64,000 bases of DNA from Candidatus Levyibacteriota bacterium (GTDB lineage: Bacteria; Patescibacteriota; Microgenomatia; Levybacterales; UBA12049): NCBI GenBank assembly GCA_041906785.1, contig JAYRIM010000023.1:129985-193984 (forward strand). Direction: 5' to 3'. Below are positions 2,252 through 46,893 of the stretch, in pieces (the stretch's first letter is position 1; each line of letters begins with the position of its first letter). The notes beneath the pieces were generated by a model. That model searched no databases, was not told the DNA's origin, and was given only the letters and a program-made list of their open reading frames with translations. The position numbers and the translations under genes are program-made.

Positions 2252-2504
2252 TAAATTACAAGTTTCAAAGTTACAGAGATGCAAAGTCACAAAGTGTAAT
2301 GTCTCATCTTCAACTTTTTGATTTACGCAAGACAGAGGAACTCTGCGAATAATCATTTTTGCGAAAACAACCTATAAGAGCGCTTCACGAAATGAAAATT
2401 TAAACCAGAGCATTTCTGCTGGAAAAGTGGGTGTCGGCAACGCTGCCGACACCCTCGCGATATTCGATTGGAGCCGGGCAGAACTGCCCGGCCTGGCAGC
2501 TTTA

Positions 2505-3311: not shown

Positions 3312-3581
3312 GTGTACAATAAATATATGTTTAAACAACCATGGTTTCGTTTACATAAATGGAAAACTGGTTGGGTACCTATTACATGGCAGGGATGGAT
3401 ACTGACTCTCTTATTTATCGGTCTCATCATATACAACTTTTTCCGCATAGATGAAACTTCTCACTCAGTATCTGATACGTTAATTAACTTTATTCCGCAA
3501 ACAGTAGTATTCGCTGGATTATTTAGCGTTTTTTGCTATTTTAAATCGGAACGACCTTCTGGAGAAGAAATGTTAAAATAA
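3312..3581 (+). CDS. small hypothetical membrane protein
   Basis: 89 aa with two hydrophobic helices (ILTLLFIGLIIYNFF and VVFAGLFSVFCYF). Confidence 0.45.
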   Translation: MYNKYMFKQPWFRLHKWKTGWVPITWQGWILTLLFIGLIIYNFFRIDETSHSVSDTLINFIPQTVVFAGLFSVFCYFKSERPSGEEMLK

Positions 3582-3614
3582 AAGAGTCAAAGCTGCAAAG
3601 AGTCAGAGAGTCAA
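3582..3614. repeat. left arm of an imperfect 33-nt inverted repeat flanking the four-helix-bundle gene
   Basis: aagagtcaaagctgcaaagagtcagagagtcaa matches the reverse complement of 3983-4016 at the ends (agagtcaaag ... agagagtcaa). Confidence 0.6.
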
Positions 3615-3617
3615 TTT

Positions 3618-3986
3618 ATGATAGAAAATCATAAAGGATATCATAAACTTATTATTTGGCAAAAAGGTAAACAGTTTATGAAAGTTTTATATTTATTGAC
3701 AGAGAATTATCCTAAACATGAGATTTTCGGACTACAATCTCAAATTAGAAGAGCTGTTGTGTCGTTCCTTCTTAATATCGTTGAAGGTCATAAAAGAAAA
3801 TCTACGAAAGAATTCCTACAATTTCTCAATATTGCAGAGGCATCACTTGTAGAAGTTGAAGCATGTTTAGAGATATCATTCGAATTAAGTTATATAACTG
3901 AGAGGGAGTATAGTCAGCTTGAAGAACAAAGACGCGAACTCGCCAGAATTATGCGAAGTTTTGTTAAAAGTCTTAATAAGCGTTGA
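3618..3986 (+). CDS. four-helix-bundle protein (23S rRNA intervening-sequence protein family, TIGR02436/PF05635-like)
   Basis: 122 aa. The sequence LIIWQKGKQFMKVLYLLTENYPKHEIFGLQSQIRRAVVSFLLNIVEGHKRKSTKEFLQFLNIAEASLVEVEACLEIS fits the family pattern closely. Confidence 0.75.
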   Translation: MIENHKGYHKLIIWQKGKQFMKVLYLLTENYPKHEIFGLQSQIRRAVVSFLLNIVEGHKRKSTKEFLQFLNIAEASLVEVEACLEISFELSYITEREYSQLEEQRRELARIMRSFVKSLNKR

Positions 3987-4016
3987 CTCTCTGCTACTCT
4001 GACTCTTTGACTCTCT
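3983..4016. repeat. right arm of the inverted repeat flanking the four-helix-bundle gene
   Basis: ttgactctctgctactctgactctttgactctc; its reverse complement gagagtcaaagagtcagagtagcagagagtcaa pairs with 3582-3614. Confidence 0.6.
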
Positions 4017-4017
4017 T

Positions 4018-4677
4018 ATGTATATTGTTACATTCTTGATTGAATTATTAGTACTATTTCTTTTATCTAAGCAAGTTACACAACACATTTCTTCACTCCT
4101 ACACAAATTAACGAAAAATAGAAAAGTTACAGTCTATTTAATTGCTTTTTTCTTCCTACCAGGCACTTTTATTCATGAACTTGCTCATTTTCTCATGGCG
4201 AAAATACTTTTCGTTCCTGTAGGGTCATTTTCTCTCAAACCTGAAGCAATTGGTCATGATATTCGCCTAGGAAAAGTTATGATCGCAAAGACAGATTTTT
4301 TCAGACGTCTTCTTATCGGCGCTGCGCCTTTTATCTTAGGTGTCTACCTAATTCTTTTTATCGTTTCAATCATCCAACAAAATCAGCTGTGGAATAACAT
4401 GTATATACTTCTTATATGCGGCGCTCTTATTTTCCAAATCGGCAACACAATGTTTTCAAGTAAAAAAGATATGAAAGGTGCTATCGAACTTATCTGTATT
4501 GTTTTGTTTCTTCTACTTTTTCTCTATCTCATGGGATTCCGTATAGCTGTTACTGACCAAACAATGGACTTTCTAAACTCTATTTTCCAAAAAGCATCTA
4601 TTTTTCTTCTACCGCCCGTTATCATAGATATTTTTCTTCTTGGGCTTTTTAAGGTTTTAGTTAAACCGACAAATTAA
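4018..4677 (+). CDS. polytopic membrane protein with an HExxH motif (putative intramembrane zinc metalloprotease-like)
   Basis: 219 aa with at least 5 hydrophobic helices. HELAH lies within a predicted helix (PGTFIHELAHFLMAKILFVP). The family assignment is tentative. Confidence 0.5.
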   Translation: MYIVTFLIELLVLFLLSKQVTQHISSLLHKLTKNRKVTVYLIAFFFLPGTFIHELAHFLMAKILFVPVGSFSLKPEAIGHDIRLGKVMIAKTDFFRRLLIGAAPFILGVYLILFIVSIIQQNQLWNNMYILLICGALIFQIGNTMFSSKKDMKGAIELICIVLFLLLFLYLMGFRIAVTDQTMDFLNSIFQKASIFLLPPVIIDIFLLGLFKVLVKPTN

Positions 4678-43705: not shown

Positions 43706-44058
43706 AAAAAAGAAAATACACAATACAAAAAGACGTTACGTTACTATCTTTTTCACTCTTCGTTATCGTTACGTTATGGATTGGATTAACAGTGTATGGC
43801 ATTTATGTAACCAGTACAGTCAGTGATACGTTACAATTGCAAATTTCACCTATCAAAGGCTCATTTGATAAAGAAAGCATCTCTATCATAGAAAACCGCA
43901 TCCCAGTTATTCCTGAATATTCAGCAAGCGATTCAGCTAGTACTGTAACCTTTGATGCGTTACCCACACCGTTTATTTCTAATGAGCAATTATTACCAAC
44001 TCAAACACCAAATACAATATTACAGCCAACTAGCGAATCAGCAGGAGGTCAACTGTGA
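43702..44058 (+). CDS. small membrane protein (PilP-like position)
   Basis: 118 aa with a single TM helix; operonic overlap with neighbours on both sides. Confidence 0.4.
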   Translation: MKKRKYTIQKDVTLLSFSLFVIVTLWIGLTVYGIYVTSTVSDTLQLQISPIKGSFDKESISIIENRIPVIPEYSASDSASTVTFDALPTPFISNEQLLPTQTPNTILQPTSESAGGQL

Positions 44059-45482
44059 AACGAACACTCTTAAATAAAAAAATACCATCTTATATCGGCT
44101 TTCTGGGTCTGTTACTTCTTATCCCTCTCATTTCATGGTTTGTCGAGAATAATTCATTTGTCCGAATTAAAGCAAATCCGAATTATTCACCTCGCGATAT
44201 TCAAATAAGTAATGTTACTGATTCTTCTTTTACCGTATCATTTATAACTACAGAAGCGACGCCAAGCACGATTTCGTACGGAGAGAAAAACGATTTAAAA
44301 GACATAGCTTTCGATATACGAGATACGACCCAGAGCAAACCTGCAGCACATAAGGCTCATTTCTTTACGGTAAATAATCTCCGTACGAATACTGAGTATT
44401 CATTTACTATTTTAGCCGGAAATATGGTATTTAAAAAAGACGGTCAACCCTATACAGTAACTACTGGATCAGTACTAACGACGATACCAAAAGAATCGAA
44501 AAAGATTACTGGGCATGTTATTTTACCTGATGGTACATATCCTACAGAAACTATCGTATATGTAATTTCAAACACATCACAACAATTAGCGAAATTAACT
44601 GAACTAGATGGTTCATTTTCTATTGAGCGATCTCTTTTACGAACAAGTACTTTTGATGGATATGCTGATCTTCCTGAATCTGAAGAACTACAGCTTCGTG
44701 TAGTGAATAGTGACCATGAAACATCAGTAAATGTTCTCGTAAAAAATGCAGGAGTTGTCCCTACGATTACGTTATCAAAAAATTATGATTTTACCTATGA
44801 TACAGCACCCGATGAAGGACATAATACTACTGATACTGCGAATCTTTTTCCTGAATATTCAACAAATAAAATTCTCAGTAAAACTCCCCAGATACTTATT
44901 CCCACAGAAAATCAGGCATTTGATGATCTACAACCAGAATTTAGTGGGACTGCGCTTCCTTCAAAAACTATAGATATAAGTTTTGATACTTCACCTATAA
45001 AATCTACGGTAAGAGCAAACGCAACAGGGAGTTGGTATTACCGTCCGAAACTTCCTATGGAACCTGGAAATCATACAATTATTGTCAGTACTAAAGATGA
45101 TTCAGGCATGTTAGTAACTTCATCACAAACATTTGCAATCCATGCAATAGGTAGCCAGTTTTTTGCACCATCTCCAGCCGTTTCACCAACACTTACCCCA
45201 ACTGTAAAACCATCTATCTCCCCAACCATACAACCGACAGTGACAGTCCAACCAACTGTTCCTACCGGTGGTCCCACCCTATCTCCTGTTCTAACTCCGA
45301 CTATTACACCGAGCCTTCTTCCTAGCCCGACTCCAATAGCTGTAATCACCGTCACGATTCCGCCTACTACTCCATTACCAAGTGTCACACCACCAGGAAG
45401 TGGAACTGTCGCAGTAACTTTCGGATTCGCGTTATTTGCTATTGTTGTTGGCATTATGGTATTTTTTCTTACCCATGTATAA
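44055..45482 (+). CDS. large surface protein with FN3-like/PAP-N, CarboxypepD_reg-like and bacterial Ig-like domains, a Thr/Pro-rich stalk and a C-terminal TM anchor
   Basis: GTG start after an AGGAGG ribosome-binding site. FN3-like segment SNVTDSSFTVSFITTEATPSTISYG...TNTEYSFTI; Ig-like segment PEFSGTALPSKTIDISF...ATGSWYY...GNHTIIV; then a TPTxxPT stalk; the C-terminus GSGTVAVTFGFALFAIVVGIMVFFLTHV. Confidence 0.6.
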   Translation: MKRTLLNKKIPSYIGFLGLLLLIPLISWFVENNSFVRIKANPNYSPRDIQISNVTDSSFTVSFITTEATPSTISYGEKNDLKDIAFDIRDTTQSKPAAHKAHFFTVNNLRTNTEYSFTILAGNMVFKKDGQPYTVTTGSVLTTIPKESKKITGHVILPDGTYPTETIVYVISNTSQQLAKLTELDGSFSIERSLLRTSTFDGYADLPESEELQLRVVNSDHETSVNVLVKNAGVVPTITLSKNYDFTYDTAPDEGHNTTDTANLFPEYSTNKILSKTPQILIPTENQAFDDLQPEFSGTALPSKTIDISFDTSPIKSTVRANATGSWYYRPKLPMEPGNHTIIVSTKDDSGMLVTSSQTFAIHAIGSQFFAPSPAVSPTLTPTVKPSISPTIQPTVTVQPTVPTGGPTLSPVLTPTITPSLLPSPTPIAVITVTIPPTTPLPSVTPPGSGTVAVTFGFALFAIVVGIMVFFLTHV

Positions 45483-45594
45483 TAAATAGTTGCACAGATG
45501 CATAGTCAGGACACCGGACGGTACTTGACATAGTTTCAGAGGTCAATAAATACACTTTTCTCTTATTACTCTGCAACTTTGGATCTTTGTAACT

Positions 45595-46893
45595 TTGAAA
45601 CTTACTACAATGAACATAGGTATTATAGGTGCAGGATTCACAGGTCTTTCTGCAGGATATACACTTACAAAACAAGGCCATATAGTTACTATTTTTGAAA
45701 AAGATCCACAACCAGGCGGATTAGCCATAGGGTATAAAGAAAAAGAGTGGGAATGGTCACTTGAAAAACACTATCACCACTGGTTTACGAATGACAAATT
45801 TATTCTTAATTTAGCAAAGGAAATTAATCATACAGTCTATATTAAAAGACCTCATACAAACTGGTATGTAAATGGTAATATTTATGAGTTCGACTCAATA
45901 CCAGCGGCCTTAAGATTTCCTCCTCTGCCTTTTATTGATAGGATAAGAAATTTAGCAACACTTGGATTACTTCGTTTTAATCCTTTCTGGCAACCACTTG
46001 AAAAATATAATGCACACAAAGTACTTCCATTTTTCATGGGGGGAAAAGCATATAAAATGCTGTGGGAACCATTGTTTATAAATAAATTTGGTAGCTATGC
46101 TACTGATGTCTCACTAGCTTGGTTTTGGGCCAGAATTGCTAAGCGAACACAATCTCTTGCTTATCCAGAAGGAGGTTTTTTAGCCTTTGCCAATCATCTC
46201 GTAACAGGTATAGAAAAAAATGGTGGAAGGGTACAGTTCAATACCGAACTAATTGAATTACTTCAAAATAAAAAGACTACAGTAAAAATAAAAAACATAT
46301 CAGGGAATATAGCTACTGTTTCATTTGATAAAGTGATTGTAACCTTGCCTTCTTTTCTGTTTCTTAAAACAACTCCCCAACTTCCTGATGCATATAAGAA
46401 TTCTCTTGCGAAATTAAAAGGTTTGGGTGCGACAAATCTTATCCTTCGATTAAAACAACCTTTTTTTGCAGATAATACATACTGGTTAAGTGTCGCTGAT
46501 ACTACTTCACCGGTAATGGCAATTGTCGAGCATACAAATTTTATGGATAAAACATTTTATAATAATGAACACTTGCTCTATCTCGGCAACTATGTTCCTC
46601 AAGACCACTCGTATTTCTCTATGACTGAGCAACAAATGCTTGATCATTTCGACAAATTCTTAAAAAGAATAAATCCAACCTATAAAAAAACAATTATAGG
46701 TATGAAATTGTTTAAGGCTCCTTTTGCTCAACCTGTTATTCCTGAGAACTATTCAAAAATGCTTCCTCCAATGAAAACACCGTTATCTCAAGTATTCCTT
46801 GCAAATATAGAACAGGTATACCCATGGGATAGAGGAACAAATTATGCCGTAGAACTAGGACAAAAAGTTGCTCATCTTATTACTAAAACCTGA
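45595..46893 (+). CDS. FAD-dependent oxidoreductase (amine oxidase/HemY/CrtI-like Rossmann)
   Basis: N-terminal dinucleotide-binding motif IGIIGAGFTGLSAGYTL...IFEKDPQPGG. Confidence 0.65.
   Translation: MKLTTMNIGIIGAGFTGLSAGYTLTKQGHIVTIFEKDPQPGGLAIGYKEKEWEWSLEKHYHHWFTNDKFILNLAKEINHTVYIKRPHTNWYVNGNIYEFDSIPAALRFPPLPFIDRIRNLATLGLLRFNPFWQPLEKYNAHKVLPFFMGGKAYKMLWEPLFINKFGSYATDVSLAWFWARIAKRTQSLAYPEGGFLAFANHLVTGIEKNGGRVQFNTELIELLQNKKTTVKIKNISGNIATVSFDKVIVTLPSFLFLKTTPQLPDAYKNSLAKLKGLGATNLILRLKQPFFADNTYWLSVADTTSPVMAIVEHTNFMDKTFYNNEHLLYLGNYVPQDHSYFSMTEQQMLDHFDKFLKRINPTYKKTIIGMKLFKAPFAQPVIPENYSKMLPPMKTPLSQVFLANIEQVYPWDRGTNYAVELGQKVAHLITKT

Follow-up and report, generated by a model that had tools for sequence, protein, structure and literature searches.

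Polar tandem-repeat arms bracket a stand-alone 23S rRNA intervening-sequence-type gene in a Candidatus Levyibacteriota genome and flank most sampled members of its family

The DNA considered here is a 64,000-nt stretch of a Candidatus Levyibacteriota genome (assembly GCA_041906785.1, contig JAYRIM010000023.1, positions 129,985 to 193,984). It is called the window below and is numbered from its first letter. At 3582-4017 it carries a 436-nt cassette formed by a small gene of the 23S-rRNA-IVP / TIGR02436 family (IVP in what follows) and two arms of short tandem units that are complementary to one another. The IVP gene lies on the forward strand at 3618-3986 and encodes a four-helix-bundle protein of 122 aa. 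The gene before it, on the same strand at 3312-3581, encodes an 89-aa membrane protein and has orthologues both in a relative that has the cassette (L100/L101) and in one that does not (L093). Its stop codon abuts the 5' arm. The gene after it (4018-4677, forward strand, from the open reading frame (ORF) list and synteny) encodes a 219-aa membrane protein, and its ATG abuts the 3' arm. The three genes are thus co-directional. No terminator-like site was found between them, and promoter-like sites there were not above chance. The window is AT-rich, at about 33-35% GC, and the relatives of its proteins are largely bacteria of the candidate phyla radiation (Shapirobacteria, Curtissbacteria, Woykebacteria).

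The initial annotation, made from the sequence alone, had assigned the 122-aa ORF to the four-helix-bundle family, and profile hidden Markov models, a structural match and a structure prediction agree. The protein scores above the cut-offs of both PF05635 23S_rRNA_IVP (113.5 bits, cut-off 33.8, E 6.7e-33) and TIGR02436 'four helix bundle protein' (110.1 bits, cut-off 24). Its structural match in the PDB is 2GSC (Xcc0516; E 2.6e-16). The AlphaFold monomer model (pLDDT 95.3) has four long helices arranged as a four-helix bundle like those of Xcc0516 and BT_0352. Residues R45, S49, N53, E56 and G57 are invariant in an alignment of 35 sequences. The conserved motif given for the family is GxxRxxxSxxxNxxE (PMC3936711), and we count it as present here, with Q42 at the position of the leading G in the clade of the window protein. 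The crystallised family members 2GSC and 2RLD have five chains each and are homopentamers.

The arms are inverted arrays of about 33 nt, each with about four 8-nt units, of the form NNNCARAG on the 5' side and CTYTGNNN on the 3' side. They were delimited from the sequence, from repeat families and by a period-8 scan. The 5' arm (3582-3614, forward strand) follows the upstream TAA (3579-3581) without a gap and stops 3 nt short of the cassette ATG. Its best self-repeat period is 8, and its four units are, in order, AGAGTCAA AGCTGCAA AGAGTCAG AGAGTCAA; the cores are CARAG at 3588, 3596 and 3604 and degenerate at 3612. The 3' arm (3983-4017, read on the same strand) is the complementary array, whose cores are CTYTG at 3989, 3997 and 4005 and degenerate at 3981 and 4013. 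From the cassette TGA (3984-3986) it runs to 1 nt before the downstream ATG, 4017 being the base before that codon at 4018. Because the arms adjoin the upstream stop codon, the cassette ATG, the cassette TGA and the downstream ATG, the cassette is the whole intergenic space. Positions 3578-3614 pair with 3983-4019 over 37 nt at 78% complementarity, 368 nt apart, with perfect sub-matches of 13 and 10 nt, and the outermost segments (AGAGTCAAAG and CTTTGACTCT) match perfectly. The imperfect inverted repeats of agagtcaa units noted at the outset therefore hold as to the units and the perfect outer match, and the arms are more than that description says: they are polar tandem arrays.

Several measures set the arms apart from their surroundings. 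The pattern CARAG-N3-CARAG-N3-CARAG, with at most one mismatch, has 10 overlapping matches at four places in the 64 kb, against 0.00 expected, and six of the 10 fall within the two cassette arms. The inverted-repeat alignment score of the cassette is 42, and the 99th percentile of matched genomic controls is 29. A 461-nt segment around it is predicted to fold with the arms paired at a minimum free energy of -117 kcal/mol (z -4.66, none of 100 shuffles as good), so that the stable RNA stem foreseen in the initial annotation survives a fold check. The isolated arm-arm duplex is computed at -40.9 to -44.2 kcal/mol. The predicted stem can extend across the upstream stop codon and into the downstream start codon.

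The same packaging recurs across the gene family. We collected homologous loci from genomes (11), metagenomes (80) and viral contigs (15), and made counts over 84 usable loci, which come from many phyla. Arms are visible by eye in nearly all of the collected loci, including most of the 15 viral contigs, and the unit differs from locus to locus (GTTTCGA, GGCGAAT, GGGGACT, CAGTGGT and GTGTCAA are examples). The flanking inverted-repeat score has a median of 38 in the 84 loci versus 18 in position-shifted controls from the same contigs (Mann-Whitney p 1e-32), and 74% of the loci exceed the 99th percentile of the controls. A period of 7 or 8 fits best in 67 of the 84 upstream flanks and in 75 of the 84 downstream ones (80-89%), compared with 20% of controls. 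Arms have a median length of 35 nt and typically about 4-5 units, and the 3' arm starts at a median of +1 nt from the end of the stop codon. In 30 of 43 loci the upstream stop and the outer end of the 5' arm are at most 12 nt apart. The arms are also polar. On the sense strand the 5' arm has more G than C in 52 of 59 loci (p 1.4e-9) and is purine-rich in 52 of 61. Where both neighbours are co-directional, the cassette gene points the same way in 41 cases and the opposite way in 3. The G-rich polarity together with this orientation bias argues for a strand-specific role, most simply one in RNA.

The initial annotation had taken the family to be encoded normally inside 23S rRNA, with the window as a departure. 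As to the window it was right: the surroundings are protein-coding, and an Rfam scan of the 64 kb finds no rRNA, the only hit being tRNA-Pro at 817-888. As to the family the opposite holds. No 16S or 23S similarity was detected in the 98 loci compared or in the window (blastn with E. coli rRNA, a search that has no positive control in the candidate-phyla-radiation lineage), and a profile search puts the size of the family at about 37,100 clusters (50% identity); of the 150 best matches listed, nearly all are 115-135 aa long. From these two results, stand-alone, arm-flanked genes are the norm for the family and rRNA-borne copies the exception. The arms are kept with the gene, as had been asked of a genuine cassette: in the closest relative (L100/L101), around another paralogue in the same genome, in roughly three quarters of the 84 loci and, by eye, in most viral contigs. 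Polar tandem-array arms around an IVP gene outside rRNA are thus a rule of the family, more general than was first seen. With this, the idea that the repeats are incidental low-complexity sequence beside an ordinary gene can be practically dismissed. The AT-richness of the genome (about 33-35% GC) speaks for it, and it is refuted by the 10 period-8 matches against 0.00 expected, by the fold z of -4.66, by the enrichment across the family (p 1e-32) and by the arms kept in the orthologue.

Some loci depart from the common layout in other ways. In L011 (2983-3591, Chloroflexota) the IVP ORF has no stop before the 3' arm and reads through it, which gives a tail rich in Pro, Ser, Thr and Ala (PSTPSAPSTPSAP...) that is encoded by the repeat units. 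Two identical IVP genes on the Nostoc sp. PCC 7120 plasmids alpha and gamma (L127, L128) have a heptamer array on the 3' side only, of CTCTGCC type. Their upstream sides are transposase genes (ISL3-family in L128), and further transposase genes lie downstream. A promoter inside the 5' spacer was suggested by eye in some viral loci and was dropped, as the count of sigma-70 promoters between the 5' arm and the ORF showed no enrichment over shuffles (20 loci, spacers of at least 30 nt).

We propose that 3582-4017 is a self-contained intervening-sequence-type cassette within an ordinary operon, whose arms would pair in read-through RNA and be processed there. On the analysis below we give this reading about an even chance. 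Read-through from the upstream gene would transcribe the cassette, and the arms of the transcript would pair as an imperfect duplex of about 30 bp, with the ORF looped out and its ribosome-binding region buried. As a side effect, the base of the stem would bring the upstream stop codon beside the downstream start codon. RNase III would cut the arm duplex, as in the homologous intervening sequences of Coxiella and Leptospira. Cutting would release the cassette RNA and uncouple the host cistrons, which would make the insertion tolerable. Gene and arms would be inherited, lost and probably moved as one unit. The mechanism is modelled on that of Coxiella because the window cassette matches the Coxiella element in its parts, in their order and in scale.

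Whether the arms are selected to pair, or merely share a motif, can be asked of their sequences. Over the whole family, cognate arms score a median of 31 against each other versus 14 for non-cognate arms. Within the CARAG subfamily the CA.AG and CT.TG cores are invariant and only three spacer bases vary. In seven aligned cassettes the arm helix is 86.6% paired versus 79.9% in shuffles (2 of 500 reach the observed value) and at most 52% when the arms are slid, and double changes occur in 5 of 16 helix pairs. Covariation beyond the shared motif is thus present, and it is modest. Unit order is also mirrored between the arms. The observed score exceeds the permuted score in 43 of 45 loci, in a test that is biased toward mirroring, as the arms had been chosen for the best alignment with each other.

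Other results weigh against pairing as the whole explanation. Within the CARAG subfamily, cognate arms score 36.8 and non-cognate arms 28.9 (permutation p 1e-4), so that cross-pairing is nearly as good; the small advantage follows from the invariant cores and the confinement of variation to spacer bases. The complementarity is real, yet much of it consists of inverted copies of one conserved unit. For the window cassette itself, permuting unit order lowers the score from 42 to 39.7, which is not significant. Mismatches between arms comprise 88 of G.U type and 91 of A.C type (50 and 48 in an earlier count). With no wobble bias, the substitution patterns show no sign of selection for pairing in the sense RNA, although this null is compatible with an RNA model, since long RNase III stems tolerate mismatches. 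The build of the arms from tandem units is unexplained by a plain stem. Finally, 26% of the 84 loci have no significant inverted pair. Four loci have direct flanks only, and two more score as both direct and inverted. In L026, L033, L048 and L081 the arrays are direct rather than inverted and so cannot pair. One possibility for such loci is a tandem of cassettes with an arm in common; another is an array role that does not involve pairing.

A role of that kind is possible, if doubtful, in the form of binding, the main alternative to processed RNA. The arms would primarily be putative sequence-specific binding-site arrays in RNA or DNA, with one 7-8-nt unit per subunit, for the presumably pentameric protein of the cassette or for another factor. 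The complementarity would then be a by-product of placing the arrays in inverted orientation, and the protein would autoregulate, package or mark its own locus. Binding of this sort can coexist with RNA pairing. It would account for the tandem build of the arms, for unit cores that stay invariant across cassettes in different genomic contexts, for the modest advantage of cognate arms in the CARAG subfamily, for the missing G.U excess and for loci with direct flanks or a one-sided array. About 4-5 units per arm also suits a protein whose crystallised relatives are homopentamers. Cassettes with more similar proteins also tend, weakly, to have more similar arms (Mantel rho 0.16, p 5e-4), as binding would have it, but common descent predicts this equally. 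The tendency of unit order to be mirrored (43 of 45 loci, with the bias just given) and the covariation at variable unit positions are not what binding arrays call for, and the way the arms hug their own and their neighbours' start and stop codons is more naturally explained by a role in RNA topology.

The inheritance of the cassette bears on the processed-RNA reading and on DNA-based alternatives alike. In the closest relative (L100/L101; protein 75% identical) the cassette sits at the same gene junction, preceded by the same membrane-protein gene (ending ...EMLQ*) and followed by the same gene as in the window (starting MYFFLFF...). Both arms are kept there; they have diverged, are still of CARAG type and still pair. 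A more distant genome (L093) is syntenic over at least 10 genes, among them those for RecX, RecA, a CAP-domain protein, an 83-aa protein, the membrane protein, PspC and FKBP, and at the cassette junction it has an 80-nt spacer and no cassette. The initial annotation had called for a look for empty sites, and this junction is a candidate, in a relative too distant (about 50-55% protein identity) to separate insertion from loss or to fix the exact ends. An independent assembly of the same genome (L001) has a second IVP gene (1881-2258, 125 aa, 38% identical), about 8 kb upstream of the window, between genes for HU and an ABC ATPase. The inverted pair around it is shorter, and its 8-nt units are different, of AGCGT type. 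Two cassettes in one genome whose units differ (AGAGTCAA-type and AGCGT-type) along with their proteins (38% identical) also fit arrays that are bound by their own protein. No other cassette copy was found in the 64-kb window.

CARAG-type cassettes occupy several other gene contexts. In genomes of the candidate phyla radiation, IVP cassettes lie between the ATPase and permease genes of ABC transporters (L102 at 2453-2927, and also L002, L003, L007 and L013). At these cassettes automatic gene calls carry the ATPase ORF on into the 5' arm and place the permease start within the 3' arm. The permease ATG lies within a CTATG variant of the last unit, and upstream stops are often in CATAG units. Ten independent assemblies of one cassette of this type are identical, arms included. 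With no polymorphism in unit number among the ten, they give no sign of hypervariable slippage.

Arrays of the resident unit type also occur in the window without a gene. At 45488-45597 (forward strand; period-8 scan and fold) a pair of CARAG/CTYTG arrays of 8-nt units, with 5'-type units at about 45489-45512 and four CTYTG units at 45569-45597, fills the gap from the stop of ORF 44055-45482 to the ATG at 45611 of an oxidoreductase-like ORF (45595-46893). It folds as a hairpin (z -2.93, none of 200 shuffles as good) and looks like a decayed cassette or a gene-less, non-autonomous version. A second array, four NNNCARAG units at 2262-2296 (forward strand; pattern scan), lies directly 3' of the stop of the CAP-domain gene 1307-2251. 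It has no convincing partner arm, and we treat it as a solo arm because the fold of 2250-2345 is no better than shuffles. A weaker array on the same strand lies at 2917-2937, about 620 nt downstream. Gene-less arrays of the resident type are a further point in favour of binding sites.

They are also what a DNA element would leave behind. The arms could be the terminal inverted repeats of a DNA transposable or hairpin element, homogenised by template switching or slippage, with the gene as cargo or accessory. This we hold to be quite unlikely. A transposon origin of intervening sequences has been proposed before (PMC4990558), and several of the present results suit it: a conserved gene junction that carries the cassette in some genomes and not in another, the recurrence of one lineage's gene and arms in several gene contexts, gene-less derivatives in the same genome that resemble MITEs (miniature inverted-repeat transposable elements), and symmetric mismatch spectra. 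The ends themselves do not behave as those of an element should. There is no target-site duplication at 3582/4017 (flanks ...aaaataa|aagagtc and gactctctt|atgtata), the window holds no near-identical copies, and the second genomic copy is 38% identical and has different arms, so that conserved ends are lacking. The only ORF encodes a 122-aa helical bundle, a kind of protein not known to act as a transposase or recombinase, and neither enzyme is encoded in the cassette. The identity of ten independent assemblies, arms included, and the G-rich polarity and 41:3 orientation bias are likewise unexpected, the latter two for a symmetric DNA end. Formally, DNA inversion could also act on two inverted repeats of about 33 nt with 368 nt between them, which would make the cassette a phase-variable segment. 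This is very improbable: in 41 of 44 cases the gene runs in the same direction as its co-directional neighbours, all ten assemblies, drawn from different samples, show a single orientation, and there is no invertase nearby. We accordingly retain processing of paired arms in RNA as the working model for the cassette.

A broader reading would combine parts of these alternatives. IVP genes and their arms might form a very widespread and hitherto unrecognised class of selfish or semi-autonomous cassettes, in which the putative pentamer reads its own 7-8-nt units, about one to each subunit, gene-less arrays are non-autonomous derivatives and the rRNA copies are those that landed in hairpin loops. 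We offer this only tentatively and think it rather unlikely as a whole. Candidate non-autonomous derivatives would be the cyanobacterial heptamer repeats, the Xanthomonas GGGAATC pairs and the Geobacter 'regulator sites'. If true, three orphan features that have long been known in bacterial genomes would share a single origin and a single mechanism. Apart from that, the arms give a family of about 37,100 clusters at 50% identity a cis-acting partner that is open to direct test. They matter for annotation as well, as gene callers systematically run neighbouring ORFs into the arms or start them inside.

Two further stretches of the window lie near the cassette. A GC-rich island at 2372-2830 stands visibly far above the background of about 33% GC. 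It holds a minus-strand ORF (2505-2675, 56 aa, rich in Pro, Glu, Lys and Gly) and then a GC hairpin (2427-2456), and an Rfam scan of the island gave matches at chance level only. At the same position the syntenic genome L093 has a 74-aa acidic ORF and a similar hairpin. Farther upstream, a strong hairpin at about 888-974 (z -4.3) comes after tRNA-Pro(GGG) (817-888) and before a stand-alone 84-aa GIY-YIG gene (1006-1260). In place of this gene L093 has a UbiA-family gene, so the small nuclease gene is variable too.

Among known systems, the Avd proteins of diversity-generating retroelements share the fold of the window protein. Identity with Avd was rejected, as the scores fall below the cut-offs (NF033474, 40.3 versus 80; PF22296, 36.8 versus 40). 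A diversity-generating retroelement was rejected as well: no reverse transcriptase domain occurs among the neighbours, and none of the 84 loci has, within about 3 kb, a template/variable repeat pair with adenine-specific mismatches. Like the window cassette, MITEs and small insertion sequences are compact, bounded by inverted repeats, present or absent between relatives and accompanied by gene-less derivatives in the same genome. Unlike them, the cassette has no target-site duplication and no transposase, and its arms are internally tandem and polar. Operator arrays of heptads or iterons offer a different parallel. The omega repressor of pSM19035 is a small oligomerising protein that reads contiguous 7-bp heptads in direct or inverted orientation. 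Its fold differs from that of the IVP proteins, and its arrays lie at promoters rather than bracketing a gene from start to stop.

Paired orphan arrays have been reported for decades, with no function assigned to them. Geobacter metallireducens has 'global regulator binding sites' that comprise 24 pairs of 4 x GTTGCTYN and 21 pairs of 3 x TCTCCGTS(Y), with a further 8 array pairs that are nearly all 5 x MTYCTGA; they lie in intergenic gaps inside operons, such as nifD|nifK and proB|proA, and IS110 elements are reported inside the array pairs (PMC2700814). The convergent GGGAATC heptamer pairs of Xanthomonas and the GGGGAYT arrays of Nostoc have no assigned function (PMC4692102). Papers on such arrays propose IHF/HU-type regulators or G-quadruplexes (PMC2700814, PMC4692102). 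In all three cases 3-5 tandem units of 7-9 nt stand on opposite strands within one intergenic region, as they do in the window, and these pairs resemble both the cassette arms and the gene-less pair at 45488-45597. The orphan arrays are described without a gene between them and without mention of the IVP family, whereas the window arrays bracket an IVP gene. A pattern-based link between the two is suggested by one named case, a 'four helix bundle protein' gene on Nostoc punctiforme plasmid pNPUN01 that is bracketed by CAGGAGT heptamers and their complement. Subscription journals aside, we found neither such a link in the literature nor a full-text account of stand-alone IVP genes with tandem-unit arms. 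Cassettes of the present kind are a possible explanation for these arrays.

The closest known system is the intervening sequence of 23S rRNA. IVP genes have been seen inside rRNA insertions of the candidate phyla radiation (PMC11270868) and wedged between cas genes (PMC3936711). The intervening sequence in helix 45 of Coxiella burnetii 23S rRNA is 428-444 nt long and has a 28-bp terminal stem whose loop contains the S23p ORF. Just before the ATG of this ORF stand three GACAGAT heptamers in tandem and a fourth, degenerate copy, and RNase III cuts the stem at the first repeat in vitro (PMC4990558). A stem with heptamers is thus already known for one rRNA-borne copy, and the likeness to an RNase III-excised intervening sequence that the initial annotation had pointed out extends to the ORF-bearing Coxiella element in some detail. 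The Coxiella and Leptospira elements carry the same protein family in the loop. Coxiella and the window agree in length (428-444 nt and 436 nt), in terminal complementary arms of about 28-33 bp that enclose the ORF, and in short tandem units directly before the ATG (GACAGAT x3-4 and NNNCARAG x4). They differ in unit length, which is 7 nt in Coxiella and 8 nt here, and in residence: an intervening sequence is defined by its place in helix 9, 25 or 45 of 23S rRNA, and the window cassette is flanked by protein-coding genes. Cutting by RNase III was demonstrated in vitro for Coxiella and would apply to the window cassette by analogy. The Coxiella ORF is reported to be decaying (PMC4990558), whereas that of the window appears intact and conserved. 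If most members of the family travel as stem-closed, repeat-armed cassettes between the genes of operons, then the rRNA intervening sequence is a special case of this arrangement.

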